Shown here: piece by piece, positions 4,336 to 28,120 of the stretch | Layout: the number at the start of each line of letters is the position of its first letter | Numbering within the stretch: the stretch's first letter is position 1 | Source: Bacilli bacterium | GTDB lineage: Bacteria; Bacillota_I; Bacilli_A; ML615J-28; CAG-313 | Length of the DNA: 64,000 nucleotides | NCBI GenBank assembly: GCA_017463365.1 | Contig: JAFTPH010000052.1 | Coordinates: forward strand, 3,276-67,275 | Direction: 5' to 3' | Position numbers and translations under genes: made by a program | Notes under the pieces: generated by a model | Told to the model about the DNA's origin: nothing | Database searches by the model: none | What the model saw: only the letters and a program-made list of their open reading frames with translations

Positions 4336-5775
4336 TTATTCAACAGTATAGATTTTTTGATTTTTACTTTTTGGTTTATTTGGAATAGTATAAGCAAGTA
4401 TTCCTTGTTCAATTAATGGCATCACGTGTGAATTTATAAAATAACTAGGATGTTTTTCGTTATATCCGAAGAATTTAGATAACGATTCTTTAGTTCTAGG
4501 CGTTTTACAGTATATTTTTATTTTCGAAATAAAATCATCATTAATAATATCTTCTTTTTTTGAATTATATAAAGTAACTTTAAATGTACCTCTTGAACTC
4601 TCGAATTTTGGCTCTAATAACCCTGCTTTTTTCATCTCTGCGTAAATTGTAGGTATTCCTGAATATCTATTTTCTGTAATTTCTAATATTTCTAAGACAG
4701 AAGCAATAAATGGATTTCTAATATCAGAATGCACTTTTCCCAAATCATCAAGAGAAAGTCTTCCATATAACCCACCGGGATTAGATATTTCAATTCTATC
4801 ATCAAAAATAGTTAATCTAATAGGTTCATTTTCAGTATGAATACTATAATCTCTATGAATTAATGCATTTAATATTATTTCTCTTATTGCTTTAATAGGA
4901 TATTCCAATATATCTTCTCTAATACCACTTTCATTAATTCTTGTAGCCTTTTTTATATTATTAACAACAAAAGAAATAGCCAATTTTAACATTTCGCTTA
5001 TTGTACCATCTAATCGTTTATTATCTAAGAATCTAATACCATTTTGATCTTCAATACCATAATCATCAGTTGAACATCTTACAGCAACAATATCTAAATT
5101 AGGAGAAAATATTTGGGGGTACTTGCCGAAATTCATAATACCACAAACTGTAGGATGATTATTTTTATCAATTATTCCATTTATTTTTAATATTGCATCC
5201 TTATCTAAATTAATTAAATTAGGTTTTAAAGATATAATCTTATTCAAATAATTATTTATTAATATATCATTAAGAATATCTGCTTCTATTCTTTCTTTAC
5301 TTCGAAGTTCATCTTCTGTCTTATATTTAAAAGCATCAAAACTATATATTTCATAATCTGTCATCGTATAATCAGCATCACCAACTCTTATATATGAACC
5401 TTTCATTTTACCTTTTCCAGAATAATAGCATGGTTTACTAAACACATCTAATTCAGGAATTTCAGCTGAAGCGATTATTTTCCCTTGATACTCACATATA
5501 GTAATTATTGGTCTAATTTTAGGTTCCATCATAAGTGATTGTTCTGCTATTTTCTTTTGTAAAATATCAGGATTACTTATACCACAAATTTCATAATTAT
5601 TTTTTTCATCAACACCAAATATTATTATACCTCCTGACGTATTAGAAAAACTAGAAAAAGTATCGTATAAATTTTCAGGTATCCCATCTTTAGATTTTTT
5701 AAATTCAATATTATTAGTTTCAGTTTTTAAAGATATTATATCTTCTATTAAATTAATCAATTCATTTTTTTGCAT
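4336..5775 (-). CDS. COG2865-type putative transcriptional regulator (N-terminal Schlafen/AlbA_2 domain, HATPase_c-like domain, C-terminal HTH)
   Basis: The ORF is 497 aa from the first in-frame Met. The likely start is Met19 (MQKNELINL…) at 5775 because of AAGGA RBS spacing. Domain order resembles the 'RecG C-terminal domain-like' regulators. Confidence 0.6.
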   Translation of the reverse strand: MQKNELINLIEDIISLKTETNNIEFKKSKDGIPENLYDTFSSFSNTSGGIIIFGVDEKNNYEICGISNPDILQKKIAEQSLMMEPKIRPIITICEYQGKIIASAEIPELDVFSKPCYYSGKGKMKGSYIRVGDADYTMTDYEIYSFDAFKYKTEDELRSKERIEADILNDILINNYLNKIISLKPNLINLDKDAILKINGIIDKNNHPTVCGIMNFGKYPQIFSPNLDIVAVRCSTDDYGIEDQNGIRFLDNKRLDGTISEMLKLAISFVVNNIKKATRINESGIREDILEYPIKAIREIILNALIHRDYSIHTENEPIRLTIFDDRIEISNPGGLYGRLSLDDLGKVHSDIRNPFIASVLEILEITENRYSGIPTIYAEMKKAGLLEPKFESSRGTFKVTLYNSKKEDIINDDFISKIKIYCKTPRTKESLSKFFGYNEKHPSYFINSHVMPLIEQGILAYTIPNKPKSKNQKIYTVE

Positions 5776-5964
5776 ATTCATCATATCCTTTTCTACTATT
5801 AGTATACTACAAAATTTATAAAATATCAATAAATTAGGAAAATAATTATTGATTTAGGAAAATTTTGCATAATTTTACGAAAATATTTTTCAAAAAACAA
5901 TTCATTTTTAATAATATTATTTTACTTATTCTTTAATTCGTATAAACACATTTTTTAATGGTAA

Positions 5965-15000: not shown

Positions 15001-18000
15001 GTGAATGGAATAAATTCTTTACCAGCTTGGTAATATAATACAGTAGCTCTTGTATCAGCATTATCATCAAAATAGATATAACTGATTGTAGGTTTAAATT
15101 TACCATTTACATTTGCTTCTAATAAAGTGATAATAGCATCTAATGAACTAAATTTATCATCAATTAAATTTAAATCAGCAAATGTTTCTGTAATACTATT
15201 AGCATTAATTGTAGTTGCTGCACGATTATCAGTTACTTCAAAGTTAACTACACATTGATTTACAGGTTTATTTGTATCATCTGTTGGATATGTTAATGTA
15301 ATTGTATATACTCCAAGAGCATCAATTGTATTAACAATATTTCCTGCGTTATCTGTAATTTTAATTTCAACTTTTGCTAAACGAGTATTATCAGCATTTC
15401 CATTAACTTTTACACTTACACCTAATTGTGCTAATAAATCAGCTTCATTTGCTAAAGCAGCTTTAATTGCATCAGCACTAATATCTGTTGCTTCATATTC
15501 AGTATTTGTATATGTAATTTCAATTTCTTCACGTGCATCATTAACTACTAATGTAATTTCTTGACTACATGGAGCACTATCATTATCACCAGCGAAACTT
15601 AATACTACTGTATATTCTCCTGCTTTGTTAATTGTAACTCCATTTTTAACTGTTGCAGTAAGAGGACCAGCAGTAAATTTATATTCAACTTCATCATTAA
15701 TTGCATTAACAATTTCTTCACTAGTATCTAAACCAGTTTCTAAACCGCTTAATGTAGGCACATCAATAGTTACTCTTGTAGGGAAAGCAATTGAAGTTGC
15801 AGCACGCTCAATTTTGAATGTGAATGTTAATGCACTTGCTTGGTTAGTTTCACTACCTTGAATAGAAATAGTTACTGTATAAGTTCCGTCATTTACAAGG
15901 TTAAGTGTTGAATCATTATAATATTCATTACCTTCAGCATCTACGATACTTGAGATAGCAACTAAATTTGTATTTACAACATTTCCATCAGCATAAACTG
16001 CAGGAATAATTTCTTTAATTGCAGCTAATGTAGCATCATTTAATTTAGCATATACTTTTTCAGTATAAGTATCTAAAGTAACAACTGGACGGTTATCGAC
16101 AATTGTAAATGTTGCAATTGCAAATGATTGCTTAATAGTATTTGTTTCATATACAAAAGTAATTTGATAAATACCTACAGCATCAATTGCGTTCTTAGTT
16201 TGCCAATCATCACTTTTATTTACTTTAAATTTGATTTCACCAAATTTAATATTTGCATAATCAATAGAAGTAACTAATTGACCATTCACTGTTAATTCAA
16301 CATTTCCAATTATATCTAATACTTCTTTTGGAGTATCAAATAAATCATTAATAGTTGATGAACTAGTAGATGGAGTATTATATGAACCAGTACCATTCAT
16401 ACTTAAACTTGAAGATAAACGAGCATCAACAAGTTTAAATCCTAATGTTTGTGTTAATGGTTTATATGTATCGCTTCCTTCAATCTTGATTGTTACACTA
16501 TATGTAGTCTCAAATTCAACATTTTCAGGATCTGCATAAGTATCAACTGTTGCATTAGCTAAATTTACTTCTAATGTATTTAAGATATTATCTTTAGCTA
16601 ATAAAGTATCAATTGTGCTAATATCTGTAATATCAATTTCTGAATCATAAGTTACTGTATATACTGAACGAGTATCTTTAATCTTTAAAGTTACTGTTTG
16701 TTCAGGTAATCCGAAATATTTATCATTTTCGTTTACTTTAACTTTTACAGTATATGTAGCATCACCATAAGGAATCTTATCAGTGGCGTTATAATTTGTA
16801 ACCGATACAGTAATATCGCTATCTAATATAGTTACACCATTAGCAATTGTTAACTTATCAATTATTAATTTTCTGAATGTTAAATCAGCAAAATCACTAA
16901 CTTCAACTTCAATTGAAGAATTAATTGCAGGTCTTGGTCTAACATCTGAAATTTTTAATGTTATGGTAACTGGAGTTGCAGGTTTATGAGTTTCATCACC
17001 CTTACAACTTAATGCAATTGTATAAGTTCCTACAGCACCAATTCCTGTTTCAGTTTCTTCTGTTATTGTATTACCATTAACTGTAATTACTGAAGCTGCA
17101 CCATTTAATTTAAATTGCACTCCATTTGCTACAAGAAGATCAACTAATTCAGCTAATGTGTCATATGCAGAAGTACGTTCTAATTTAGAACTAAATTCTT
17201 TTGTAATTTCATTTGTTGGAACATAGAAACCAGTTTCAGTACGTCCATCATTAAGTGTGAATATTACAGTTGATTCTCCAGATCTATATTTACTATTACC
17301 ATCGTAATCAATTGTAATTTTATATTGCCCAGCTGAAGTTATTTTAGTTACTTCAGTAGTTTTTAAACTTGCATTTGAAATAGTTTCTAATGCTTCATAT
17401 TGTCCACTTGTTGAATTATATTTTTCAATAATTAATGAAAGTCCACCAATTGTTTCAGCAAGTAATCCGTATTTTGTATTTTGAATAGCACTTAATAATC
17501 CTGTTGCTCCAATAGTAGTTAATAAAGTTTCTAACTTACCATATCCAGCAAGCTCAGTTAAACTTATAAATGCACATGTTGTATCTTTAACATTAAAAAC
17601 ATAAACTTCACGAGCATCAACTACTTCAAATTGAATTGTTCCAGCAGTTGCTTTATAAGTTTCAGTATCTAAAACTACAAATGCAATATTATATATTCCA
17701 GTTGTAGTAATTGGTTTATAACTTACTGGATTTTCTGAATCAGTATTATATAAGCATTCATTATTAGAATTTGTAATACTTAAAATACTAAAAGTAGTTA
17801 CATGCATTTTATCATTTAAAAGCATCGTTTTAATTTCATCTAAAGTATCGATTTTACTGTAATCACTTACAATGTCATATAAATTAAATTTATAATTAGT
17901 AAAACTTAATTCTTCACGAGCATCAGTTACATTTAATGTAACTTCAGTTTCTGCCATTGCTTTATAAGTTTCATTTTCTGCAACTGTAACTTTAATAACA

Positions 18001-20315
18001 TAATTTTTAGTTCCATATGGAATTTTTCCATCTGTAACACCTGTAATTGTTACATCGCTTTCAGCAACTTTAACATCTAATTTGCTAATTAAATATTCTT
18101 TAAATGTAACAACACCTTTATAATCAGTAATTGTTTCATTAAATGTAGTAGCAGTAATATTTGGAGTTGTACGACTATCTGTTAATGTAGCAGATACATA
18201 ACAGTTAGAATAAACACCAGATAAGTATACTCTTACACTTTCAGAATATGTTTGATTTTTGCTCCAATCAGTACCGAATCTATCAAACGAACTTCCATCA
18301 GTTATTACAACCCATTTATCTTGACCAGCATGATTTTCTTCAAATTGGATTGTAACATTATTAATGTTAAATACATCTTTTGTAGAATCCTTTAATACAT
18401 CATAAATCTTTTGTTTTAATTTATCACCAGTAATACTTGTGATATTATAATAACTAATTTTTGTTGACGCAAAACCAAATCCAGCGTTTGCTATTGGTGT
18501 TGCTTCAACGCTTAAATTATATGTTGTTTTAGTACTAGCAGTAGTGAATGTTCCTGTCCATGTAGCACCATTCCAAGAACCGTTAATTGCTACACCATCT
18601 AATAATATTTTACTAGCTTCAAGATAGTATTGTGAAGAAGGAGTAATTGTAATTGTAACATCTTGACCAGCAGGCAATGTTGCTCCACTAGTCTCTTTAA
18701 CTTCTTCATTTACTGTAGCTGTAACAGTTGCATTAGATACAGTCCAATTTAATGTTGAATCAGTATCTTGTCTTATCACCAATGTAACTGTTTTACTTTC
18801 AGCTGCAAGATAATCAATATTTTCAGCATAATTAAATTTAATTGTGTAATCACCAAAATCAGAAATTGCAGCACCAGATAGATTTGTATATTCACTTCCA
18901 TTAATAGTTACACTACTAAAAGATTTTCCATTATCAATATTAGCATTAAACATATTAATAATATCTTGAAGTTTAAAATCTTGGCTTTCTTCAAATTCTT
19001 TTTCTATTTTATCTGGAGAAGCAGAAATTGTAGGTTTAGATCTTTTTTCAGTTAATTTTGTTTCAGGAATAACACATTTACCATATTTACCAGATAAATA
19101 CACCTTTACATTTTCATATGTTTGTATTTTATCTTCACCAACTACAGTATTAAGTAAGAATTTTGATTCATTTCCAGATAAATCAATCCATTGGTTTCCT
19201 AAATAATACTCCCAATAAATTTCTATTTTTCTATAATCTAACTTTTCATCTTTACCTTCATTTAGAGCATCCATTATTCTATTTGCAATTGGATATTCAG
19301 ATGAAGTAGGACTAAATAAACTAATTTGAGTAGTATCAAACTTAAACTCATGTTTAGTCGCATTAACCGTTAATATATAATCTGTAGCAGTTGAAGTAAT
19401 TGTATAAGATCCAGTCCATACACCTTCACTTGACCATCCGCCATCTTTATTATACGTTGCACCAGGTAAACTAATATTAGTTGATGGATCAACATAATAA
19501 TCAGTTGATGGTGTAAGTCTAATATAAATCTTTGTCCCTAAAGGTAAAGATGTAGTTGATGTTAAAGCAGAAAAACTTCCAGAATCACCAATTTTTATTT
19601 CAGCAGTAACATTATTGAGAGCTGGCTTAATAGTTGATTCTTGTGTATATGTAATATTTAATTCTACATTACTTTTTAAAGTATTCGAAATGCTATATAC
19701 ACCATTAACGGCTTCAACAGCAACTGTATTATTTTCAACAACTAATTTATGATTACTTAAAAGATTTGATGATGGAGTATAAGTAATAGTTGTTCCATTA
19801 ATTGAAAGCGAATCATAATTATCTGCTGTGTACTCTTTAACGGTATTTGAGTCAACATAAAGGGTTTCTAACAGAGCATTTTGACCACCAATTGAAATAG
19901 TAACATCTAATATATATTCATATACATCAATTGTAACACTTTTCCCTGACATAATTGAACATTTTGTAGGTGACCAACTTGTACCTAAACCACTAAAAGA
20001 ATATATTTGAATAACATCATTCTCATTGAAAGATAATGTATTTCCGGCCCCATTATTTAATGTGCTATAAGTGATTCGTTCAGGGGTCCCACCATTAACA
20101 GAATATCCATAACTACCAGTACTAGCCGAAGAATTACTAAATCCAAATATGCTAACTAAAAGTTCTTTTTCAGTAGTTATACCATTTTTCAAATGAACAA
20201 CTGATCCATCTATCACATACTCTGCCTCTACCTCTACATTAGTAGATGTGAAACCTAGGATAGATACTACAGCAATCATTGCTATAAATAATCTTAATAA
20301 AAATTTTCTATTCAT
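6009..20315 (-). CDS. giant (4768-aa) secreted, repeat-rich surface protein (putative adhesin)
   Basis: Single 14.3 kb ORF. ATG start with an AAGGAGGTG RBS. N-terminal signal peptide MNRKFLLRLFIAMIAVVSILGF. About 35-40 tandem ~100-aa repeats ending in a T-x-T-L-x-V-x-D-x-R hinge, consistent with Ig-like/beta-sandwich modules. An MBG-like segment (…FKYNGMPQG…NVGFYTVTAIYNN…). A C-terminal Cys-rich 39-aa repeat x3, then an F-rich segment, then an acidic tail. No LPXTG. Confidence 0.85.
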   Translation of the reverse strand: MNRKFLLRLFIAMIAVVSILGFTSTNVEVEAEYVIDGSVVHLKNGITTEKELLVSIFGFSNSSASTGSYGYSVNGGTPERITYSTLNNGAGNTLSFNENDVIQIYSFSGLGTSWSPTKCSIMSGKSVTIDVYEYILDVTISIGGQNALLETLYVDSNTVKEYTADNYDSLSINGTTITYTPSSNLLSNHKLVVENNTVAVEAVNGVYSISNTLKSNVELNITYTQESTIKPALNNVTAEIKIGDSGSFSALTSTTSLPLGTKIYIRLTPSTDYYVDPSTNISLPGATYNKDGGWSSEGVWTGSYTITSTATDYILTVNATKHEFKFDTTQISLFSPTSSEYPIANRIMDALNEGKDEKLDYRKIEIYWEYYLGNQWIDLSGNESKFLLNTVVGEDKIQTYENVKVYLSGKYGKCVIPETKLTEKRSKPTISASPDKIEKEFEESQDFKLQDIINMFNANIDNGKSFSSVTINGSEYTNLSGAAISDFGDYTIKFNYAENIDYLAAESKTVTLVIRQDTDSTLNWTVSNATVTATVNEEVKETSGATLPAGQDVTITITPSSQYYLEASKILLDGVAINGSWNGATWTGTFTTASTKTTYNLSVEATPIANAGFGFASTKISYYNITSITGDKLKQKIYDVLKDSTKDVFNINNVTIQFEENHAGQDKWVVITDGSSFDRFGTDWSKNQTYSESVRVYLSGVYSNCYVSATLTDSRTTPNITATTFNETITDYKGVVTFKEYLISKLDVKVAESDVTITGVTDGKIPYGTKNYVIKVTVAENETYKAMAETEVTLNVTDAREELSFTNYKFNLYDIVSDYSKIDTLDEIKTMLLNDKMHVTTFSILSITNSNNECLYNTDSENPVSYKPITTTGIYNIAFVVLDTETYKATAGTIQFEVVDAREVYVFNVKDTTCAFISLTELAGYGKLETLLTTIGATGLLSAIQNTKYGLLAETIGGLSLIIEKYNSTSGQYEALETISNASLKTTEVTKITSAGQYKITIDYDGNSKYRSGESTVIFTLNDGRTETGFYVPTNEITKEFSSKLERTSAYDTLAELVDLLVANGVQFKLNGAASVITVNGNTITEETETGIGAVGTYTIALSCKGDETHKPATPVTITLKISDVRPRPAINSSIEVEVSDFADLTFRKLIIDKLTIANGVTILDSDITVSVTNYNATDKIPYGDATYTVKVKVNENDKYFGLPEQTVTLKIKDTRSVYTVTYDSEIDITDISTIDTLLAKDNILNTLEVNLANATVDTYADPENVEFETTYSVTIKIEGSDTYKPLTQTLGFKLVDARLSSSLSMNGTGSYNTPSTSSSTINDLFDTPKEVLDIIGNVELTVNGQLVTSIDYANIKFGEIKFKVNKSDDWQTKNAIDAVGIYQITFVYETNTIKQSFAIATFTIVDNRPVVTLDTYTEKVYAKLNDATLAAIKEIIPAVYADGNVVNTNLVAISSIVDAEGNEYYNDSTLNLVNDGTYTVTISIQGSETNQASALTFTFKIERAATSIAFPTRVTIDVPTLSGLETGLDTSEEIVNAINDEVEYKFTAGPLTATVKNGVTINKAGEYTVVLSFAGDNDSAPCSQEITLVVNDAREEIEITYTNTEYEATDISADAIKAALANEADLLAQLGVSVKVNGNADNTRLAKVEIKITDNAGNIVNTIDALGVYTITLTYPTDDTNKPVNQCVVNFEVTDNRAATTINANSITETFADLNLIDDKFSSLDAIITLLEANVNGKFKPTISYIYFDDNADTRATVLYYQAGKEFIPFTKVGTYKVVLSYAATDTHLAAENKEVTINVIDGREVIVLQNTVNEYPVSNISKDAISSKFTTIDDLFKIIGLKVLVNGNEANRLGKLTYTVSDGDKNYYNETGNVIEKVGNYSIKVTYPESNTNHKAELVVSFDIKDKRSVVTIDANNVSNPGIGFADLSQIPGQFDTLEEILKTINLSVKFDGTAQNYMTLVNNGNVKVTITDAGKNELTALTKVGVYTVTIEYIDDDTHDYKSEPKSVTLTLEDKRINPVIDENISKEVSDFNTTDTALEVLELIKNYIKDEKGNILDLSKQTYTIKVNGGNNGITSAGEYTVTVFVEDSDTCNAKTLETTLTIIDVRPTAVISVPNTSVGVDNLNEDLYSINSLDKVLEELGAYVSVGGVKDLSIKPRISAIYVGTINSIDDVDDLGVYYADSDAYYPIGSYKIDIPGKGFVKFDQISTYTIRLHLEDTKSYKVTVKEVTVNLKLTDQRQASTMTVAPIEPVDIYNTNWASIGRTFDKAAILNLFKAGIVVNGNAMVAGTVSVSDIDGELIDAITDYGSHTITFKFAGDNTHKPCTQTATLTLVDARPEPTIPSELSINVPDYGKDIIAQIKTLVLNNLTANANGQEVTIDANKVTVTIGNGITSIPVGYDGTYELKVTVAESETYKATTAKVTLTVNDTRSETSIEAKDYSFAEPDYSAIAGKYDEDSEIRNVLNATIVTTGTALDASNIVVTRYETINSIGTYYIELKFNGDMTHKPSVEVYKKIELTNGRKTTTMTVENVPFDASTSATIAENFKTLESVLAKFNVVVNDGTETIVSPNVVITRIEELDRDGNVKEVIYSGGDYNTFISNIATYKVTFKYVEDDTHNECTSHATITITDGRTPCTIDVANTVTLNVTDFGTIDTLAEIINQLNVKVLIGESVVENPTIVVQSIVDAENNSYINGTDCTINAAGTYTIAFAVEATSSYGTSNATVKVVVNDNRIATEITYTPKGLATDNFNKVFNIISELNIAVKDVAGATVEITEILLNDSSVEQVRLAGTYDIYVKYNATDLYKECTKRIRFTIDDTRTEISIDDIELTVDDFSIVDSISKVKAIIKSNIELNGGAITSISEINDSHFSISGITKINKGNGVYNITYRLTESETYKGITNTIQLTINDNRIDTRINVSNTPIVVNEPNINSSAINIKYNSSEKLVTAVNAYIENVINNQITKADGLVIKATADKTVNAVGNYVITLSFEGDNTHKPAQTVTAILSLQDGRSTTKLSIPDVELEYSNHTTLANDFKLKDNVLKKFSISLIIGDQTISSPNVKIKSIVDENEVSYYEEYDITEIISGGAYKDPIVKPGLYTVTFEYEATDTTLGCTGTAVIEIKDTRPTTSIDWIDPNVDSNNFLELEAKYNTLDKVLEALECVIKNQNNISVDGNVVINVIYQGELSLTGTILSRDNIYYSNGKHTISTTLGNVSVPVKDYVPLNKAGTYTIELEFIETATHQGSKATATFTVTDTRAESTVTFTDPMISFDNRLNIATRFDTLDKVLAALTPNVNGVNGVSGLSIVSVFNGTKAYYNPNGYDLPIIGSNKVIDFNGLDQFGEYTVTVSFAGDNTYQPGEYTAKLTVVDGRVDATLVWEYDTYVESKLTDSETLFSSLDILTQYINPMVKIGNGEYYSSELTITSIRKGLDLSDILGSLGEDLNLSDLTEEGLKKLGFYYIQQGVEIGGYNIPINVSYKELDEATDYTITFVYAGTDTVKGFETEMTFTVSDGRPSGEIYVPNLSYDAYNFGQIPVKFDSLESLLAYLNPTVQVETFEGINVSYQGTFEIDLIVRIDLADPEIYYSKGLTLLGKEYGAQAYEPLDNVGKYTIHISCPGAAEYQKCDTTITFEIKDMRGESETECEEVTIYEDDLSTIGSDFETLEKVLKAFNPVAYDAKGNRIDDAEFYISAIYKGSILDFANLGNNIYYMESILGKTIDYKGIDSVGEYNVIIKFKGNNSSQPSDVTVKLTIVDARPETQVNLKSDVVTQVLPTDYVTKEEVFNLVFESVSIKGNTASIVDYGYVSANVTLNSLSSATNTEITQITEAGVYTITVKFPATSTHLGSEATVEFMVSDGRNVTKVTNNDVLEIPFVKGDVLSLDQIVEDLGIGLYDETNGVVLNKEFTYALYRGTTEIQASSITTFGQTYTILVNYAGDDEYAPCSKRVEFTVVDGRTKTYIDAATSISVVYNNYTAEDVYNLLLDGYLGAYIINENGIKVAIDKAEIRFSLSDAQIETLNAGDHTITLSYAGSEYDYQPATLTCTITVEKAPAKVNVVSGSFNYKDIKGTGVNISERITTEPELEVIELAIGLNASAGMMSYLNIPNLIDLDSVPESVRPYVQTILDNLGFNEQMSISELKAAIEGIKDALEMLENLVGVSLSSDALDSTIKLLEQLEKISSTTGIEIMLTMGKDIYLEEAGLYLIGAVTTSQNYETAFGLGYITIIPDATKVELGFNVEVENFMVTKASIMQDPTILGAHVKKDGLSQELYEAATSKLATLYIGIDINGEQYVTDQPISELGAYTQIAYTRDLGNEMLYAIPIVRVYTVVIDTISVEFVNDDAEFKYNGMPQGLIPEAYADNGDILPNEYLTCYYNGVMSNGEVYSSTELPTNVGFYTVTAIYNNPELLQYGLAVGTMTIYAEEHGMSLEDVELFHDGEPHNVVINNPYGLEEIILVLGNDTHTVNVILPESWGVKDEFFDIQGQLSPLVKLIHILQLFADNELIDKVEEILSDLPLNSIAVNGDSPVEAGRYEYIVIGYKQNYDLFTGEAVLNLKHNLVAKQTDNYHWQECTICDYYTDFSGHTYGDWQVEQAHTCITDGIETRYCSGCDHFETRTTEATGHLFVEWNKVKNPKCYEVGIEVSTCERCGEAGQRDIATIPHTYTHWEDTVEATTDEPGKAESHCDVCGHVGVKRTPTKTIFEVFEDFFDKLFDFFNSFFNKLNNIINALAGNPDDEETKEQATDDLYDLYFGEEEESKE

Positions 20316-20821: not shown

Positions 20822-21835
20822 TTATTTTATTTTCCAATATCCAGTTTTATCTGAACCTACTCTTTCTATTAGTTTGTTTTCCGCTAAATATTTAATATTT
20901 CTTCTCACTGTCTCTTCTGATTTATTTATTTCTTTTGAAATTAATGCATATGTGATATTTGGATTTTTAACTATAATGTCATAAATTTGTTGTTGGGTTT
21001 TATTTAATTTTACACCCACATTTACACCCACATTTACACCCACATTTTCTTGTGAATTTTGTACTTCTTCTCCAATAATATATGCAAAAGGTATTTTTAC
21101 TTTAATAAAATTATCTAAGAATTCGAATACTTCTTTTCCATATTTATCTACTACTAATGAAACACCATGACCAGTTTGTTCAATAAGTCCAAGTTGAATA
21201 AAAATTCTTGTAAGAACCTCATTAACTGGTTTACTAACTCCACTAAAGAAATCTTGTTTTGTAATACCACTTGCTAATCCACCAGTTGAAACAATTTCTA
21301 GGTGATCATCAAATATATAAACAGCAGGTGGAGTTCCATCCATCCAATCATTATGTAAACAAGCATTATACCAACTTTCTCTAAAAGCATCTGTATCAAA
21401 TAATTTTATATCTTTTCTAATGCCATTTTCAAATATGGTTTTTGTTGTATTGATTACATCAACGCAATAAGCATATGCTTGTTTCATTGAAACAATTAAA
21501 CATTTATATCCATATTCATTTCGATATTTAATATTACTTGCTTTTGTATATCCATCAAATACAACAACTTTTATTGATATATCGTTATCATCTGCCAATA
21601 AATTTGCCTGTAAATTGTACTTATAATCTTTAGTTAATAGTTTTAAATTATTTTCAAATGTTTCATCATTTACTGATAACCCTTTTTCTGTATATAACAT
21701 TTTTAAATACTGAAACTTTAGATTTTGTTCTCTAGCTTCAATATCAATTATTTTAGAATTTCTAGTCATATATTTATTAAAGTAATTTACAATTTGTTCT
21801 TCAGTCATTGATTTAGCAGTTGTACCTATTCTCAT
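20822..21835 (-). CDS. C-terminal part (HATPase_c-like + wHTH) of a second COG2865-type regulator paralog; probably a frameshift-split gene
   Basis: 337 aa homologous to the C-terminal two thirds of the 4336-5775 product (…IVSTGGL…GHGVSLV…). The C-terminal wHTH is NITYALISKEINKSEETVRRNIKYL. It contains a (VGVN)3 insertion encoded by a 12-bp tandem repeat. Confidence 0.5.
   Translation of the reverse strand: MRIGTTAKSMTEEQIVNYFNKYMTRNSKIIDIEAREQNLKFQYLKMLYTEKGLSVNDETFENNLKLLTKDYKYNLQANLLADDNDISIKVVVFDGYTKASNIKYRNEYGYKCLIVSMKQAYAYCVDVINTTKTIFENGIRKDIKLFDTDAFRESWYNACLHNDWMDGTPPAVYIFDDHLEIVSTGGLASGITKQDFFSGVSKPVNEVLTRIFIQLGLIEQTGHGVSLVVDKYGKEVFEFLDNFIKVKIPFAYIIGEEVQNSQENVGVNVGVNVGVKLNKTQQQIYDIIVKNPNITYALISKEINKSEETVRRNIKYLAENKLIERVGSDKTGYWKIK
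21013..21048. repeat. 12-bp tandem repeat CACCCACATTTA x3 inside a coding region (encodes VGVNVGVNVGVK on the minus strand)
   Basis: Read directly. Three in-frame copies, the last with one substitution. Confidence 0.9.
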
Positions 21836-21874
21836 ATAACATCCTAATGCACTTCTGCCATATTTCTTAATATA

Positions 21875-22171
21875 TTATAATGCATTACCTTTTTGTACAT
21901 CTATCTTTATGATCCATTTACCCTCATCAATAAATGCAGATGTAGTTACAAACTCTTGAGGATTAGGAAGTATTTTATCTGTGATTATATCAGATATTTT
22001 CTTCATTGATTCATCTAATTTGTTTGTTACTATTCCTACAATATTTCCATTATTTTCTACACCAATATAAATTGTACCATTATTTGTATTTAAAAAAGCT
22101 ACAATTTCTTTTTCTACTTTCTCATTTAATGTACCTTTTAATTCAATATCATGTGTTTCAGAAAAATTCAT
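21875..22171 (-). CDS. N-terminal Schlafen/AlbA_2 domain fragment of the same split COG2865 paralog
   Basis: 98 aa (…NTNNGTIYIGVENNGNIVGI…) matching the AlbA_2 core. It is separated from the 337-aa ORF by 40 bp in a different frame. Confidence 0.5.
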   Translation of the reverse strand: MNFSETHDIELKGTLNEKVEKEIVAFLNTNNGTIYIGVENNGNIVGIVTNKLDESMKKISDIITDKILPNPQEFVTTSAFIDEGKWIIKIDVQKGNAL

Positions 22172-22679
22172 AGTACACCTTCTTTCCTTTAATACTTAAA
22201 CCGGAAAATAAAAAAACGGAAACTAACTTTATAAAAGTGGCAATTGTTTAAATTGCTTTATTCTTTTATAAAATCAATTTCCGCGTAAAGTCTTTTGCGC
22301 AATCCCGATACCGGTAATCCGGAGTAGCAAATCATCAATATATATATTATCCCAAAAGACTAGATAATATATTTTAAAACTTGACTTTTTACTCTTATAT
22401 TATACCATTTTTTATGTGTTTTGTCTATAGTTTTTTTAGAATTTTTGTTGAGAAAATAATAAGAAATGAACTTTACTTATAAATAAAAAACTGCAAAAAT
22501 GCAGTTTACAATAGAAATTAAACTTCCACGAAGTTTATCCGACATTTTATAAAAATATAAAATCGCTTATTCAAAGCTTTGTGTCTATTAACACACACAT
22601 ATTATAAATTATTTCTAATCATATTACAAATAAAAAGATTAAAATTTTTATAACTTTCTCTTTCTTAGAGCTAATTAAT

Positions 22680-23051
22680 TTGCATAATTGTTATATGATA
22701 AATAAATGTTATAAAGAGCAAAATATTTCAGTTAATGAAAACGATATATTAAAATGGTTTAATCATCCAACTTATAATAGTCGATTATGGATTAAAATTG
22801 AAAAATCAGGGTTAATAATTGCTAGTGGTATTGCTGAATATGATTCAAAAATAAATGAAGGAATTTTAGAATGGTTACAAGTATTATCTAAATATCAAAA
22901 TAAAGGATTTGGAAAAATAATCATAAATTCATTGCTTATAGAACTAAAAAATTTAGGTTCGAAATTTACTACAGTCTCAGGTGATTTAGATAATAACACT
23001 AAACCAGAAAAACTATATAGAAGTTGCGGCTTTTCGGGTGATGATATTTAG
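22680..23051 (+). CDS. GNAT-family N-acetyltransferase (small)
   Basis: 123 aa with motif A (QNKGFGKI) and motif B (…KPEKLYRSCGF). The annotated start is TTG with no clear RBS, so the true start is uncertain (possibly the ATG at 22695). Confidence 0.5.
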   Translation: MHNCYMINKCYKEQNISVNENDILKWFNHPTYNSRLWIKIEKSGLIIASGIAEYDSKINEGILEWLQVLSKYQNKGFGKIIINSLLIELKNLGSKFTTVSGDLDNNTKPEKLYRSCGFSGDDI

Positions 23052-23097
23052 TATATTTGTGCTGATGATTAAAAAACACAAATTTAATAAAAAACTA

Positions 23098-23166
23098 TCA
23101 CAAATCTCTTAAACAAAATGCCACAAATCTCTTAAACAAAATACCACAAATCTCTTAAACAAAATA
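23098..23166. repeat. three tandem 23-bp direct repeats (C)CACAAATCTCTTAAACAAAAT(G/A) abutting the -35 of the downstream ATPase gene
   Basis: Read directly. A degenerate fourth copy (CACAAATTT) lies just upstream. A TTTACA-17-TATAAT promoter follows at 23168-23196. Confidence 0.85.
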
Positions 23167-23217
23167 CTTTACATTTATTTTATTATAATGTATAATACTA
23201 TTAGAAGAGGTGTTTTT

Positions 23218-24498
23218 ATGGATTATAAGAAAAGAATTACTGATGAACTTTTGAAAATCAAATTAGAGGCTTTTGGTGCAGCTTTAATTGTTGGTCCAAA
23301 AGGTTGTGGAAAGACAACAACTGCAAAACAAATTGCAAATACTGTAATTGAATTCGAAGATGAAGACAATAGAGAATCCTTATTAAAAGTTGCAGAAACA
23401 ATGCCATCAAAACTTTTAAAAGGAGAAAAACCAATTTTGTTTGATGAATGGCAAGATGCACCTAAAATTTGGGGGGCTATTAGAAAATCAATTGATGATA
23501 CAGGTGAAGTAGGCATGTATATATTAACTGGATCATCTTCACAAGAAGTAGATACACCTCACACTGGTACTATGCGCATTTCAAGATTAACTATGCTACC
23601 GATGAGTCTTTATGAGTCTAATGAATCAAATGGAGAAGTTTCATTAATCGATTTATTTAACAATCCTAGTTCTTTTGAAGGATGTATTTCAAACTTAACA
23701 ATAGATGATTTGATATTTGCAATATGCAGAGGTGGTTGGCCACGTTCGTTAAATTTGAAAAATGATAAAGCCAAATTAGAAATAGCTAAAGATTTATTTG
23801 TACAAACATATTCAGTTGATATAAACAAGATTTCTAATATAAAAAGAAATCCTCAAATTGCTCAAGCTATCCTAAGATCTTATGCTAGAAATATTTGTAC
23901 ACTTGCTGAAACAAAAACAATACATGGAGATGTGGCTGCTAATTATGATTTATCAGAACCTACTTATTATTCGTATTTAGAAGATTTAAGTAAATTATAT
24001 ATAATTGATGATATCGAACCATGGTGTCCTGCCATTAGATCAAAAACTGCTATTCGTTCATCGAAAAAAAGAAATATAATAGATCCATCTATTGCTGTTG
24101 CCGCAATGGGGATTTCACCAGAGTATTTTGATAGAGATTTTAAAACATTGGGTTTTTTATTTGAATCATTGTGTATAAGAGATTTAAAAATTTACTCTCA
24201 ATCATTTGACGGACGTGTCTCATATTATAGAGATAGATACGGATTAGAAGCAGATTGCGTATTGCATTTAAATGATGGTAGATATGCCTTAATTGAGTTT
24301 AAATTAGGAGAACATGAGATTGAAGTTGGGGCTAAACATCTTTGTGAAATTGAAACATTAATAACTCAATATAACGAATCTGAAAAACAGTGCAAATTAA
24401 GATTGCCAGATTTAAAAATAGTTATAACAGGAACTAAGTACGGATATAGAAGAGATGATGGCGTTTTAGTGATTCCCATCGGATGCTTGAAAAATTAA
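23218..24498 (+). CDS. AAA+ ATPase with DUF4143 domain (COG1373 family)
   Basis: Walker A GPKGCGKTT and Walker B ILFDEW. ~427 aa from the Met at 23218, which has a GAGGTG RBS. The upstream in-frame ATG at 23188 lacks an RBS. Confidence 0.75.
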   Translation: MDYKKRITDELLKIKLEAFGAALIVGPKGCGKTTTAKQIANTVIEFEDEDNRESLLKVAETMPSKLLKGEKPILFDEWQDAPKIWGAIRKSIDDTGEVGMYILTGSSSQEVDTPHTGTMRISRLTMLPMSLYESNESNGEVSLIDLFNNPSSFEGCISNLTIDDLIFAICRGGWPRSLNLKNDKAKLEIAKDLFVQTYSVDINKISNIKRNPQIAQAILRSYARNICTLAETKTIHGDVAANYDLSEPTYYSYLEDLSKLYIIDDIEPWCPAIRSKTAIRSSKKRNIIDPSIAVAAMGISPEYFDRDFKTLGFLFESLCIRDLKIYSQSFDGRVSYYRDRYGLEADCVLHLNDGRYALIEFKLGEHEIEVGAKHLCEIETLITQYNESEKQCKLRLPDLKIVITGTKYGYRRDDGVLVIPIGCLKN

Positions 24499-24852
24499 AT
24501 ATACTTTTAGTTGTATATGTTACATTAGGTTATTAAAACAAAAAGTTTAATTAATAGAAATAAGCATACAATACTATTGCATAACATTATTTTGTTTAAT
24601 TATCGACAAACGCTTATTAAAGTAATAAAATGATTATGTAAATATCTATGCTATTCATTTCTCGCAGACAGTATTGTAATAAGTAGCCGTGAATAACGGC
24701 TCTTTTTTCATAATTTGGGGGATTTATATGAAATTTTTAAGTAATAAGCACTATGGTGGTAATGTTGGACCTAAACGTGGAGTTATAATTGATGATAAAA
24801 ACTGACTTTTAAAGTTCCCACAAGAAACACCAACATTTGATAATGTTATTAT

Positions 24853-24884
24853 TGTCCGTGTACAATAGATAGTGTACACGGACA
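24853..24884. repeat. perfect 12-8-12 inverted repeat TGTCCGTGTACA-atagatag-TGTACACGGACA
   Basis: Read directly. About 27 nt upstream of a consensus -35. Candidate operator or hairpin terminator. Confidence 0.8.
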
Positions 24885-24910
24885 TATTTTCACATGTATA
24901 TTTTTTTTAC

Positions 24911-24939
24911 TTGAATTATTAAAAAAATCGTCGTATAAT
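24911..24939 (+). promoter_or_regulatory. consensus sigma-A promoter TTGAAT-17 nt-TATAAT for the 92-aa ORF
   Basis: Spacing and hexamers read directly. An AAAGGAG RBS follows. Confidence 0.5.
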
Positions 24940-24982
24940 ATACATGAGTTAAAAATAATATTATTTCGAAAGGAGCAATACG

Positions 24983-25261
24983 ATGGCTGAACAAACAAAA
25001 GCATATTTAAGCAATAACGGCGAGTACACTACTTTTACCTTCGGCGGGCGTACTCTCACTTTCCTTACAAGTAAAAGTCTTGAACGCTACACAAGTATTA
25101 AAAAATGGGATAATGGATTCCTTGTCGTTATGGCGAAATATTCAACTCGAGCAACAGAGGAAGAGGAATATATTGACCTCATTCCAATCCTTGAAAACCT
25201 TTATATGGACGCTGAATCGTTCTTAACTCCTATTAAACAGGTGGAGATACGTTATGTCTGA
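24983..25261 (+). CDS. hypothetical 92-aa protein with atypically high GC and codon usage (probable horizontally acquired gene)
   Basis: AAAGGAG RBS and ATG start. Codons such as GGC GGG CGT ACT CTC are rare elsewhere in the window. No family recognised. Confidence 0.5.
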   Translation: MAEQTKAYLSNNGEYTTFTFGGRTLTFLTSKSLERYTSIKKWDNGFLVVMAKYSTRATEEEEYIDLIPILENLYMDAESFLTPIKQVEIRYV

Positions 25262-25374
25262 AATCGAAATCAAGATTCAAAAGTTTATTAAGATCAATTA
25301 TCTTGAAATGTTTGAATAATGGTCAATGGATAGCAGCAAAGGTTTCTTCGATCAACAATAATTATATTTTTAAT

Positions 25375-25403
25375 GGTGGTTCAAATTTGAACCACCATTT
25401 TTA
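25375..25403 (+). terminator. rho-independent terminator GGTGGTTCAAATTTGAACCACC followed by ATTTTT
   Basis: Perfect 11-bp palindrome followed by a T-run, downstream of the 92-aa and 21-aa ORFs. Confidence 0.6.
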
Positions 25404-25506
25404 TAATTTGTGATAAATAAAAAAAGGAAGGGCCCCGAGGGACCCAAAAAGGAAATAGTTGAAAAATAGCACTCCTTACCTATATTATACTTTTTTATCT
25501 AGCAAT

Positions 25507-27252
25507 TTATTCTTTAAATTGATATTGGTATAGATTTGCGTATATACCATTTTGTTTAATTAGTTCTTCATGGTTACCTTTTTCAATGATTCCTTCATGA
25601 TTAATAACCATTATGATATCCGCATTTTTTACAGTTGATAAACGGTGAGCAACCACAATTGTTGTACGTCCAACACTTAGTTTTTCTAAAGCTGCTTGAA
25701 TTTGCATTTCCGTCATATTATCTAAAGCAGATGTTGCTTCATCTAAAATTAAGATTGGTGGATTTTTTAAGAAGGCTCTAGCTATAGAAATTCTTTGTTT
25801 TTGTCCTCCTGATAGTTTTACTCCTCGTTCTCCAACGTAGGTATCATAGCCATCTTCTAAGCTCATGATAAATTCATGAATATTGGCTTTTTTACAAGCT
25901 TCGATGATTTCATCATCTGTTGCTTCAAAATTACCATAAGCAATATTATCTTTAATTGTTCCCCCAAATAAGAATACATCTTGGGCCACCATACCAATTA
26001 GTTTTCTTAATGAGCTTCTTGTTAAGTTTTTAATGTCTACATCATCAATCGTAATTGAACCATTTAATACTTCATAGAATCTTGGAATTAAGTGACAAAT
26101 AGTTGTTTTACCACCACCTGATGGACCAACTAAAGCGACTGTTTTACCTTTTTCGATTTCAAATGAGATATTTGATAATACTAACTTTTCAGGATCAAAG
26201 TTTTTATATTCTGATGTTTTTACATCATATTTAAAATCAACATTGTTGAATTTAATGTTTTTATTAAATTCTTTAATTTCAATTGCATCTTCAATTTCTG
26301 CTTCAGCCGGTGTATTAATAATTTCTTGGAATCTTGAAAAACCAGTCATCCCGTTTTGAATTTGTTCGTATATTGCGACCAAAGTTCTGATTGGAGAAAT
26401 AATCATTGTTACATATAGAATATACGCTGTAAAATCCCCAATGTTAATTCGTTCATAGAAATAGAATAATCCTCCGGCAACTAACGCAACAAGATATAAG
26501 AAATCCATAAAGAATTGCATACCAGAACCAAATAGTCCCATTTCCTTATAAGCTTTACCTCTTGCTGTTTTGAATTCTTCATTACGTTTTTCAAATAAAC
26601 CAATTTCATGATCAGAGGCTGTATATGCTTTAGCAACTCTAATTCCTGAAACACTACTTTCAACTTGGGAGTTGATTTTTCCCGTTTCTTCTCTCATTTG
26701 TTTGAAAGCTGAACGCATCTTCTTTCTTCTAAACATTGCGTACACTACCACAAATGGAATAATCGCAAAAATAATTAAAGTTAACCATGGATCAATGGAT
26801 ATAGCCATTAATACCCCTGAACCAATCAAGGTAATTAAAGATAAGAATATATCTTCTGGTCCATGATGAGCAAGTTCAGCAATATCCATTAAGTCATTAA
26901 TTAATCTTGACATAATGGTTCCAGTTTTATTTTCATCAAAATAGCTAAATGGTAGTTTTTCTAGATGTGCAAATAATTCTTTACGCATATCTCCTTGAAT
27001 ATATACTCCCACCATATGTCCCCAATATTGAATAATAAAGTTTAAAATACATTTAAGAATATATATCGCAAGTAGTGCTACTGCTGCAATAATTAAAGCT
27101 TGTAAATTTTTATTTGGTACAAAATCGTTAATAATACTTCTTGTAAGCGTCGGATATACTAAATTACATATTGCTACAAGAAGGGCACAAAACATATCTA
27201 AAATAAATAATTTCATATGTGGTTTATAATAAGAACAAAACTTTTTAAACAT
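25507..27252 (-). CDS. ABC transporter, fused permease/ATP-binding protein (MsbA-like exporter)
   Basis: N-terminal 6-TM domain. C-terminal NBD with Walker A GPSGGGKTT, signature LSGGQKQR and Walker B ILILDEATSALD. The ATG at 27252 (MFKKF…) has a GAGGTG RBS. The track start at 27261 is a GTG. Confidence 0.85.
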   Translation of the reverse strand: MFKKFCSYYKPHMKLFILDMFCALLVAICNLVYPTLTRSIINDFVPNKNLQALIIAAVALLAIYILKCILNFIIQYWGHMVGVYIQGDMRKELFAHLEKLPFSYFDENKTGTIMSRLINDLMDIAELAHHGPEDIFLSLITLIGSGVLMAISIDPWLTLIIFAIIPFVVVYAMFRRKKMRSAFKQMREETGKINSQVESSVSGIRVAKAYTASDHEIGLFEKRNEEFKTARGKAYKEMGLFGSGMQFFMDFLYLVALVAGGLFYFYERINIGDFTAYILYVTMIISPIRTLVAIYEQIQNGMTGFSRFQEIINTPAEAEIEDAIEIKEFNKNIKFNNVDFKYDVKTSEYKNFDPEKLVLSNISFEIEKGKTVALVGPSGGGKTTICHLIPRFYEVLNGSITIDDVDIKNLTRSSLRKLIGMVAQDVFLFGGTIKDNIAYGNFEATDDEIIEACKKANIHEFIMSLEDGYDTYVGERGVKLSGGQKQRISIARAFLKNPPILILDEATSALDNMTEMQIQAALEKLSVGRTTIVVAHRLSTVKNADIIMVINHEGIIEKGNHEELIKQNGIYANLYQYQFKE

Positions 27253-27559
27253 CTTTTTCACCTCATGAATATAATTATACCAAAATTAAGCAGTTTTTTA
27301 TATTTTTTTGCATTTTAATATTTTTTAAATGTACAAATAGTTTTTTATTTTTCAGTTATAAAATTATGTTGAAAAAAGTGTATTTTATTGTTGATAAAAT
27401 ACACTTTTTCTAACATATTATTTATGTTTTTTATATTTAAAATAATTACAAAAATTTTTCGGTACTTAAATTAACGTCATTTTTTATAATATAAATTATT
27501 AAGAAAAGCAATATAGACTTTTTGTCTATATTGCTTTTTATTACTTGTTTTTATATTTA

Positions 27560-28120
27560 TTAGAATACCCCATATGCTATGATACCAAGTACTGCTGATA
27601 CTAATATTAGGATAATTGGATTTAGTTTCTTTTTGAAGATTAGTTTTAATCCTACAAGAATTACTAAAATTATTAATGCTTTATAATCAAATACAATGTT
27701 TGTATCGACTGTTTTAAATAATTCTTTTAGTAATAATTCAATAGCTATAAAGAAAATCATCCCACAAACTACAGCTTTGATACCATTCATTGCTGCTTGA
27801 ACATATTTGTTTGAAATAAATTTTTCATATATTTTGAAAATAGCAATAATTATAACAATTGATGGGGTAATTACTCCAAGAGTTGTAAAAATACCACCAA
27901 TAATTCCCGCTTGTGATACTCCTACAAAGGTTGCCATGTTTATCGCAAATGGTCCAGGTGTTGATTCACTAATGGCTAAAAAGTTTACAAGTTCTGTTTC
28001 TGTTAACCAGCCTCTTGAAATTACTTCACTTTCAATCATTGGGATCATAGCGTATCCCCCACCAATAGTGAATAAACCAATTTTTAAGAAAGTCCAGAAA
28101 AGTTCTAATAGTTTAAGCAT
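27560..28120 (-). CDS. chromate transporter (ChrA) family protein, second half-size gene of a pair
   Basis: About 186 aa, polytopic membrane protein with a …GGGYAMIPMI… motif. The ATG at 28120 overlaps the upstream gene stop by 8 nt. Confidence 0.7.
   Translation of the reverse strand: MLKLLELFWTFLKIGLFTIGGGYAMIPMIESEVISRGWLTETELVNFLAISESTPGPFAINMATFVGVSQAGIIGGIFTTLGVITPSIVIIIAIFKIYEKFISNKYVQAAMNGIKAVVCGMIFFIAIELLLKELFKTVDTNIVFDYKALIILVILVGLKLIFKKKLNPIILILVSAVLGIIAYGVF

Follow-up and report, generated by a model that had tools for sequence, protein, structure and literature searches.

An acquired and partly decayed three-gene cassette, probably toxin–antitoxin-like, in a Bacilli genome

We analysed a 64,000-nucleotide stretch of DNA (the window) from a Bacilli bacterium genome (assembly GCA_017463365.1, contig JAFTPH010000052.1, positions 3,276 to 67,275), concentrating on a compact element at 24893–25403 of its forward strand. 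A preliminary description had presented this region as a compositionally foreign two-gene mini-operon, with a 92-amino-acid (aa) open reading frame (ORF), a translationally coupled 21-aa ORF and an operator-like palindrome, reminiscent of toxin–antitoxin loci. We found that the 92-aa ORF encodes a DUF7724 protein and that the region is almost certainly the relic of a three-gene cassette, present in intact form in relatives as DUF7724, DUF7723 and DUF4160 genes (hereafter g1, g2 and g3). With a probability of about 0.75, we read it as an acquired, partly decayed three-gene toxin–antitoxin-like cassette that has lost its toxin gene and is left with g1. The tidy mini-operon with its operator is thus corrected to a decayed mobile cassette, and two Pfam families without assigned function, DUF7723 and DUF7724, become linked to the DhiT (DUF4160) toxin family within a gut-abundant three-gene unit.

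The deletion scar and the surviving DUF7724 gene

Relatives of the element are labelled L001 to L202 as loci, with P-numbers for individual proteins. The 21-codon ORF (25254–25319) overlaps the g1 stop codon as ATGTCTGA and is preceded by GGTGGAG; both features, put forward in the preliminary description as signs of a coupled second gene, are real in the sequence. When compared by blastn, L004, L005 and L006 match the window over 24897–25275 and then over 25259–25364, with the second match lying approximately 390 bp further downstream in these loci, at the 3' end of g3. The additional ~390 bp encodes a 78-aa DUF7723 protein and the rest of a 93-aa DUF4160 protein. In an alignment with L003–L006, homology likewise extends from the promoter across g1 to the g1 stop/g2 start and then jumps to the last third of g3. 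The feature at 25254–25361 (+ strand) is a deletion scar that joins the start codon and first codon(s) of the DUF7723 gene, in frame, to the final ~35 codons of the DUF4160 gene, with the translation MSEIEIKIQKFIKINYLEMFE*WSMDSSKGFFDQQ*. A premature TAA (25317–25319, + strand), where relatives have AAG (Lys), ends the ORF after 21 codons; the 13 codons of WSMDSSKGFFDQQ* follow in the same frame, up to 25361. With the internal stop read as Lys, the scar is identical at 31 of 36 positions to residues 58–93 of the L006 DUF4160 protein, the 21-aa ORF aligning to residues 58–80 and the next 13 codons to residues 81–93. A hidden Markov model (HMM) of the DUF4160 subfamily detects the scar with an independent E value (i-E) of 4e-8.

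Little else remains of either partner. The DUF7724 stop is not followed by a DUF7723 gene; the locus keeps no more than the g2 ribosome-binding site (RBS), its ATG and up to about 7 codons, and a DUF7723 HMM found no significant match in the six-frame-translated window (best i-E 0.18). No intact DUF4160 gene is present, residues ~58–93 with the TAA interruption being all that persists, and HMM searches identified no other copy of g2 or g3 in the 64-kb window. The deleted stretch of g3 (58–65 N-terminal codons) carries 23 of the 28 residues that are invariant in the subfamily, including the E-x2-H-x-H-x-S-D motif (E23, H26, H28, S30 and D31). The breakpoint lies within 25250–25277. As a fusion of the g2 start to a g3 tail, stripped of the invariant residues and cut short by the TAA, the 21-aa ORF is a scar and not a gene, and naming it a gene in annotation would be wrong. 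It is not conserved as such, being found in none of the 80 genome loci examined, and the GGTGGAG and ATGxxTGA overlap are g2's own translational-coupling signals, inherited by the scar.

The DUF7724 gene is intact (24983–25261, + strand; 92 aa); in the ancestral cassette it came first of the three genes. The protein is a full-length match to Pfam DUF7724 (PF24849; E 5.2e-39, 132.6 bits versus a cut-off of 27), with residues 6–91 covering profile positions 2–87 of 88. Searches of NCBIfam, PHROGs and PADLOC with the 92-aa, the 21-aa and an upstream 38-aa ORF gave no significant match. The foreign composition ascribed to the 92-aa ORF was borne out: in a window with a GC content of 0.29, this ORF has a GC content of 0.387 and a third-codon-position GC content (GC3) of 0.355, an outlier (z = 5.5) among the 43 window ORFs of at least 120 aa (mean GC3 0.171, standard deviation 0.034, maximum 0.256). 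Its GC3 is reached by none of 1439 in-frame 279-nt coding windows. The nearest g1 relatives occur in metagenome-assembled genomes (MAGs) of Clostridia/Eubacteriales, with a g1 GC3 of 0.46–0.50 and a locus GC content of 0.39–0.53. Substitutions specific to the window g1 comprise 16 changes from G/C to A/T versus 6 in reverse, a bias that indicates partial amelioration of g1 in its 29%-GC host. The synonymous distance (dS) between the window g1 and its nearest sampled relative is at least 0.54, and the sampled relatives are therefore not the immediate donor. Pairwise ratios of nonsynonymous to synonymous distance (dN/dS) against relatives of 0.03–0.11 point to purifying selection on g1. The AlphaFold2 model of g1 is a seven-stranded beta-meander with two short helices (mean predicted confidence, pLDDT, 87.7), and the window protein carries a Y46F substitution at a position occupied by Tyr in the other 24 aligned sequences. 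Because promoter, RBS, g1 and terminator are all intact, g1 is most likely still expressed, as an orphan.

The mosaic structure of the window is not an assembly chimera, since two contigs from other samples (L001, ENA ERZ27256818; L002, Logan SRR12529365) contain the identical 1021 bp (100%) with identical flanking genes. The genes of the window correspond to those of a MAG that carries the annotation "Bacilli bacterium" (locus tag IJX78_06005), with P0001 100% identical.

The cassette in relatives, its decay and its possible function

The architecture of the intact cassette was derived from 80 genome loci, all collected through g1, of which the 72 with at least 620 bp downstream form the basis of the architecture and decay counts. 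In relatives, g1 is followed by a 78-aa gene of PF24848 (DUF7723, E 4e-25) and a 93-aa gene of PF13711 (DUF4160; E 1.3e-7 and 32.1 bits for intact relatives, cut-off 23). Using tblastn and HMMs, all three genes were found intact in 47 of the 72 loci. A second sample, collected through five g3 proteins and representing about five distinct genomic contexts, had g1 and g2 in front of g3 in all 31 places with upstream room. The window retains a DUF7724 gene with its own promoter in first position, as expected for a member of this cassette family. In intact copies the g1 stop overlaps the g2 start or precedes it by a few nucleotides, and the start of g3 overlaps or adjoins the stop of g2. All-against-all clustering of flanking ORFs revealed no other conserved neighbour. 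The pairwise-identity matrices of the three genes correlate (r about 0.7 across the same 42 loci), and the three genes therefore travel together. Mean pairwise identity in these 42 loci is 56% for g1, 48% for g2 and 65% for g3. The median isoelectric points of the three proteins are 5.0, 4.5 and 7.8, respectively.

The predicted structure of g2 consists of a helix, five strands and a helix (pLDDT 90.5). Sequence-profile searches of the PDB with g1, g2 and g3 yielded nothing below E 0.08, and a profile–profile comparison of g1 with g2 indicates that the two are unrelated (probability 0.7%). By profile and predicted-model comparison, neither resembles DUF2442 or any confidently matched solved fold. 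Natural g1–g2 fusion proteins exist (P0158, P0126 and P0261), and g1 is also found fused to an Xre-type HTH_3 domain (P0191), UPF0175 (P0171), LPD3 (P0139) and YjbR (L052 4968–5639); such DUF7724 fusions are rare, each having been seen once or a few times, and some may be gene-calling artefacts. Tandem cassettes occur in a Treponema MAG (L026, 4088–4839 and 5001–5484), the second without a DUF4160 gene. A literature search found no paper mentioning DUF7723 or DUF7724, and neither family has a function assigned in Pfam. The obligate linkage of both families to a DUF4160 gene, and the pattern of decay, are described here on the basis of sequence comparison.

A profile search identified 556 DUF7724 clusters at 50% identity among 1.84 billion representatives, and sequence searches with g2 and g3 yielded thousands of protein clusters at 90% identity. 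DUF7724 relatives with 55–90% aa identity to the window protein occur in more than 540 species genomes. Hosts include Clostridia, Lachnospiraceae, Faecalibacterium, Erysipelotrichaceae, Selenomonadales, Treponema, the Bacteroidota genera Prevotella and Barnesiella, Desulfovibrionaceae, Duodenibacillus, Coriobacteriaceae, Melainabacteria, Leptolinea (Chloroflexota) and Riflebacteria. The cassette is present in at least eight phyla, and the source samples are nearly all from gut or rumen. High identity across phyla argues for horizontal spread; together with the lack of conserved neighbours it upholds the horizontal acquisition initially proposed from composition. Judged from sequence collections, the cassette is not primarily plasmid- or phage-borne: vector searches recovered it from no plasmid, from two phage-labelled faecal contigs that are unannotated, and from 8 of the 2.9 million contigs in IMG/VR. 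In some genomes it lies inside arrays of Phd/ParE, RelB/ParE, MNT/HepT, PIN and MazE modules.

Individual loci offer further observations on mobility. An identical DUF4160 protein (P0346) and its partners are found in both chromosomal toxin–antitoxin islands and prophages (L171–L180 and L199–L202); in the prophages, the P0346 cassette occupies the tail module, between the tape-measure and Phage_TAC_19 (tail-assembly-chaperone) genes. An intergenic site between PFOR and MgtE genes carries the cassette in opposite orientations in two Faecalibacterium-like loci (L181 1436–2294 and L191 911–1839). The flanks are 88–97% identical and the cassettes only 76%. The exchanged segment, ~0.9 kb long, directly follows the PFOR terminator and shows no obvious repeats at its ends. 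Together these features suggest that the cassette at this hotspot has repeatedly been replaced or inverted. A transposase fragment, IS110-like as judged from its translated sequence, lies upstream of the cassette in L004 (29–322), and a Y1_Tnp (IS200/IS605) gene lies downstream of it in L198 (1091–1552).

The cassette decays often, and asymmetrically. Of the 72 loci, 10 have lost or broken g3 only, 9 have damage to both g2 and g3, and 6 retain just g1, so that g1 is solitary or accompanied by damaged partners in 25 of them; no locus has an intact g3 without an intact g2. One DUF7723 subfamily stops 3–4 residues earlier, as seen on inspection of translations, and such genes were not counted as broken. 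Internal g2–g3 deletions like that of the window are seen in L008, L030, L045 and L073. In the window's own clade, five different g3 lesions are found: the window deletion, loss of g3 in L003, a TAT to TAA change at codon 4 in L004, a frameshift in L005 and an internal deletion in L008; L006 is the only intact cassette of this clade. Decayed loci often have intact nearest neighbours at 87–99% identity (99% for both L073/L056 and L031/L034), which points to many independent and recent inactivations. This asymmetry, in which g3 decays first and never stays intact without g2, matches the expectation for a toxin and its neutraliser. The natural history of the cassette bears the signature of a toxin gene repeatedly and independently inactivated while the first gene survives.

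A self-contained cassette of promoter, g1, g2, g3 and terminator was thus acquired horizontally. A ~390-bp deletion between short similar sequences then removed g2 together with the 58–65 N-terminal codons of g3, joining the RBS and ATG of g2 in frame to the g3 tail, and a later AAA to TAA change truncated the fusion to 21 codons. By analogy with DhiT and with the Thermus pair described below, g3 (DUF4160) would be a growth-inhibiting effector; the acidic, fast-evolving DUF7723 product of g2 would act as its direct neutraliser, and g1 may be a third partner that binds g2, as co-antitoxin, adaptor or regulator. Loss of g3 would have relieved a cost, and the surviving g1 may be either a slowly decaying orphan or the bearer of a toxin-independent or anti-addiction role. 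A toxin–antitoxin-type function of the intact cassette, in addiction or defence, appears rather likely. The earlier likening of the region to toxin–antitoxin systems thus stands for the ancestral cassette, which ends in a gene of the DUF4160 toxin family and sits in toxin–antitoxin islands, but not for the window: with the toxin partner gone, no addiction or defence unit can operate from this locus.

Several points weigh against the proposal of a decayed toxin–antitoxin-like cassette. At 32 bits, g3 scores only modestly against the Pfam DUF4160 model, and some precomputed matches flag it as weak. We found neither a DNA-binding domain in g1 or g2 nor a conserved operator, which leaves type II-style autoregulation unsupported; the rare HTH_3–DUF7724 and DUF7724–YjbR fusions hint at a DNA-binding link. 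Two microhomologies fit the deletion and render its breakpoint ambiguous, namely CGTT..TC.GA (shared by the end of g1 and codon 58 of g3) and AAATCAA(G) (shared by codons 5–7 of g2 and 63–65 of g3). The U-tract that follows the palindrome upstream of the cassette is interrupted (UAUUUUCACAUG...), making its termination efficiency uncertain. A search through the adjacent ABC transporter for a closely related genome without the cassette, which would define the insertion, found none: in the metagenome collection the cassette was present in 0 of the 80 loci so found, and the tested window neighbour genes are absent beside the best transporter relative (L083, 84% aa identity). The choice of loci through g1 builds in part of the persistence of g1 over g2 and g3, so that only the asymmetry between g2 and g3 is unbiased. 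Finally, the loci are mostly MAGs, and some frameshifts and nonsense codons may consequently be assembly errors.

Of the alternatives, the one that survives best concerns the remnant and not the ancestral cassette. It holds that the surviving DUF7724 protein has been domesticated, as an orphan kept for its own benefit, either for anti-addiction against incoming DUF4160 cassettes or as a regulator. The intact promoter, RBS, ORF and terminator would fit such a role, as would the 25 of 72 loci in which g1 is alone or beside broken partners, and the HTH_3, UPF0175 and YjbR fusions suggest a regulatory or antitoxin-type module. Approximately 8 of 23 changes on the window lineage fall at codon positions 1/2, versus ~75% under neutrality, which corresponds to a roughly estimated omega of 0.17. 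The low pairwise dN/dS (0.03–0.11) is in keeping with selection, but stems mostly from the time before the deletion, and the persistence of g1 is seen in loci that were themselves chosen through g1. Furthermore, the window protein has Phe at position 46, where the other 24 sequences have Tyr, the 64-kb window holds no DUF4160 or DUF7723 copy elsewhere on which g1 could act, and g1 could give no immunity by itself should g2 be the true neutraliser. We consider domestication unlikely on balance, if worth keeping in mind.

Less probable still is that the cassette represents some other three-subunit accessory system, such as a phage moron, an anti-defence unit or an abortive-infection sensor–effector, with DUF7724 as the principal protein. 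Such a system would be at home between tape-measure and tail-assembly-chaperone genes of prophage tail modules, and would agree with the fusion of g1 to LPD3, a domain of mobile elements' polyvalent proteins, with the higher conservation of g1 relative to g2 and its persistence alone in many loci, and with the occurrence of DUF4160 among the effector domains of Menshen, an antiphage system (PMC12065111). However, the cassette with the identical g3 also occurs in chromosomal toxin–antitoxin islands and at ordinary chromosomal sites, the element is rare in the plasmid and phage collections, and the loss of g3 first, with g3 never intact without g2, fits a toxin and neutraliser. This alternative moreover overlaps with a toxin–antitoxin-type defence role, and does not exclude one. 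Extending the toxin–antitoxin-like reading to the family as a whole, we tentatively suggest from the sequence comparisons that DUF7724–DUF7723–DUF4160 might be an undescribed tripartite toxin–antitoxin or defence module of gut and rumen anaerobes, a mobile promoter-to-terminator element of ~0.9 kb that enters chromosomes, toxin–antitoxin islands and prophage tail modules in different phyla, and in which DUF7724 keeps a selectable function, for instance in anti-addiction immunity or regulation, after loss of the toxin, as in the window.

Cassette edges, the upstream palindrome and neighbouring genes

The acquired cassette remnant, as delimited by blastn and alignment, spans 24893–25403 (+ strand) and comprises promoter, DUF7724 gene, deletion scar and terminator. 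The blastn matches to L003, L004 and L007 begin at 24893–24897, and the match to L004 ends at 25378. A sigma-70-type promoter, TTGAAT-17-TATAAT (24911–24939, + strand; 10/12 match), forms part of the cassette: its hexamers and spacing are identical in L004, L005 and L007, and promoter-like sites of at least 10/12 occur upstream of g1 in 18 of 77 loci versus 2% of random segments. The AAAGGAG RBS of the DUF7724 gene (24969–24975, + strand) lies 7 nt before the ATG at 24983, and this region is kept as GAAAGGAG or GGAAGGAG in L003–L006. Downstream, the intrinsic terminator of the cassette (25372–25403, + strand) consists of a 12-bp stem (25372–25399) with a 4-nt loop and a T-run, and folds at -18.1 kcal/mol (z -5.1). 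L004 and L005 also have a hairpin terminator directly 3' of the DUF4160 stop, of different sequence. Promoter, RBS and terminator are thus present essentially as the preliminary description had them, the terminator having been placed there at 25375–25403. A 12-nt perfect palindrome, AATAATATTATT, is located in the 5' untranslated region just before the DUF7724 RBS (24954–24965), where close relatives have AATA[A/G]TATCATT; it could be an operator or merely AT-rich untranslated sequence. An Rfam scan of 22000–28000 (E <= 1) found no known riboswitch or small RNA, the only hit being a sub-threshold match to the snoRNA snR44 (24.6 bits, gathering score 33), which we took as chance.

Upstream of the promoter, the perfect 12-8-12 palindrome TGTCCGTGTACA-N8-TGTACACGGACA is present exactly as first described (24853–24884, + strand) and forms a terminator-like hairpin. 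Its RNA folds at -19.6 kcal/mol (z -4.5 versus shuffles), with a 12-bp stem containing 6 G-C pairs, and is followed by TATTTTC...TTTTTTTT. This tail, UAUUUUCACAUGUAUAUUUUUUUU, passes a simple terminator scan (at least 5 T in 8) though it is interrupted. Perfect inverted repeats of at least 12 nt with loops of 3–20 nt produce 27 overlapping matches in the window, at ~10 sites that are all intergenic, versus 0.5 matches expected from dinucleotide shuffles; the palindrome is therefore not due to chance, but one of a class. The DNA shared with L003, L004 and L007 starts 9–13 bp after the palindrome (24893–24897), and of the 202 fetched loci, L001 and L002 alone carry the palindrome sequence. It has no match in IMG/VR, and a search of the window allowing up to 2 mismatches found no further copies above the chance level. 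In the family as a whole, strong hairpins are no commoner upstream of g1 than in control segments (Mann-Whitney p = 0.96), and those upstream hairpins that do occur in L005, L057 and L181 are unrelated terminators of the upstream gene, with the cassette starting right after. The idea that this is the operator of the cassette did not hold up. Based on its sequence, the palindrome is likely to be an intrinsic terminator, which would insulate the cassette promoter from upstream transcription.

That the palindrome instead binds a protein as an operator, or marks the point of insertion as a recombination site, seems distinctly improbable. Its geometry invites the idea, with a perfect 12-bp inverted repeat and 8-bp spacer placed 27 bp upstream of the -35 hexamer and abutting the left edge of the acquired DNA, as do a 13-nt direct repeat, TTTT[C/T]ATAATTTG, found after hairpins on both sides (24705–24717 and 25398–25410), and the genes containing winged helix-turn-helix (wHTH) domains nearby. 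Yet a sequence unique to this locus defines neither a regulon nor a repeat family, the hairpin is formed like the ~10 other perfect intergenic hairpins of the window and satisfies the terminator scan, and the cassette copies in L005 and L181 likewise begin right after the terminator hairpin of the upstream gene, each of unrelated sequence. Direct repeats of 13 nt are at chance level in AT-rich DNA. For this reason a target-site duplication, with the 13-nt repeat flanking a 693-bp segment of small ORF, palindrome and cassette, was rejected; the palindrome was also rejected as a repeated element, with no further copies in the window, the 200 other loci or IMG/VR. As for an intact two-gene mini-operon made up of the 92-aa gene, its coupled 21-aa partner and the palindrome as operator, it is scarcely credible: its stop/start overlap, GGTGGAG RBS and common terminator do exist in the sequence, but the overlap and RBS come from the DUF7723 start, the 21-aa ORF and next 13 codons align in one frame to DUF4160 residues 58–93, relatives have ~390 bp more here encoding DUF7723 and the rest of DUF4160, the ORF is found in 0 of 80 genome loci, and the palindrome lies outside the shared DNA and is not conserved.

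Several neighbouring features were noted. An AAA_14/DUF4143 ATPase gene lies directly upstream of the cassette (23188–24498, + strand) and matches the PADLOC candidate defence family PDC-S01 (E 4e-51); similar AAA ATPases adjoin the cassette in L011, L026 and L041. Between this gene and the palindrome there is a promoter-like TCGACA-17-TAAAAT (24603–24631), followed by a hairpin with a T-run (24685–24701). A GGGGGA RBS precedes a 25-codon ORF (ATG at 24729, MKFLSNKHYGGNVGPKRGVIIDDKN, stop at 24805), which sits in the 38-aa ORF and ends before the palindrome; it could be a leader, a small gene or a chance occurrence. Further upstream, on the minus strand (20822–22171), a 98-aa AlbA_2 (Schlafen-type) ORF (21875–22171) is followed by a 337-aa HATPase_c_4 plus wHTH ORF (20822–21835). 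The two together resemble a pseudogenised copy, broken in two, of the intact 497-aa AlbA_2–HATPase_c_4 gene at 4336–5829, and the presence of this split copy nearby suggests that the region around the cassette is variable and undergoing decay. One giant ORF (4768 aa) occupies 6009–20315 (- strand), with a very low GC3 of 0.10.

Comparison with known systems

Tripartite toxin–antitoxin modules include omega–epsilon–zeta, PaaR–PaaA–ParE and the toxin–antitoxin–chaperone systems. The cassette is similar in having three small co-transcribed genes with the putative toxin last, one partner evolving fast like an antitoxin. In contrast to these modules, its g1 and g2 contain no ribbon-helix-helix, helix-turn-helix or SecB-like domain. 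In its decayed state, the window locus can be compared with orphan antitoxins and decayed chromosomal toxin–antitoxin loci, such as the chromosomal ccd of Erwinia, for which an anti-addiction role has been considered. Here too the putative toxin gene has been destroyed with the upstream partner left intact, and relatives show many independent lesions of the same gene; the window differs in that the putative direct antitoxin, DUF7723, has also been lost.

A further occurrence of DUF4160 as an effector domain is in Menshen, an antiphage system (PMC12065111). The NsnC protein of Menshen shares the Pfam domain of the relic's parent gene and is a toxic effector according to the authors, but carries the domain at the C-terminus of a large defence protein, whereas the gene of the cassette encodes a stand-alone 93-aa protein with two small partners.

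The closest parallels are two DUF4160/DUF2442 pairs. In the DhiT/DhiA system of Dickeya dadantii 3937, overexpression of DhiT inhibits growth, DhiA (DUF2442) rescues it, and the complex represses its promoter (PMC8198452). A DUF4160/DUF2442 "persistence enhancing module" of a Thermus thermophilus plasmid raises plasmid persistence, and its second ORF is not deletable (PMC12724237). The cassette resembles both in its third gene, a DUF4160 gene of ~93 aa with a conserved H-x-H core, in its small overlapping genes, and in being an autonomous, mobile unit found in toxin–antitoxin islands. It differs from DhiTA in that no DUF2442-family antitoxin lies beside the DUF4160 gene, its place being taken by two unrelated partners, DUF7724 and DUF7723, which makes three genes and not two; in that the toxin-like gene is last in the cassette and first in dhiTA; and in that the DUF4160 gene of the window is a 35-codon relic only. 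The experimental work that we found on such systems amounts to two papers, and the cassette would, if confirmed, add a new tripartite architecture to this toxin–antitoxin superfamily.

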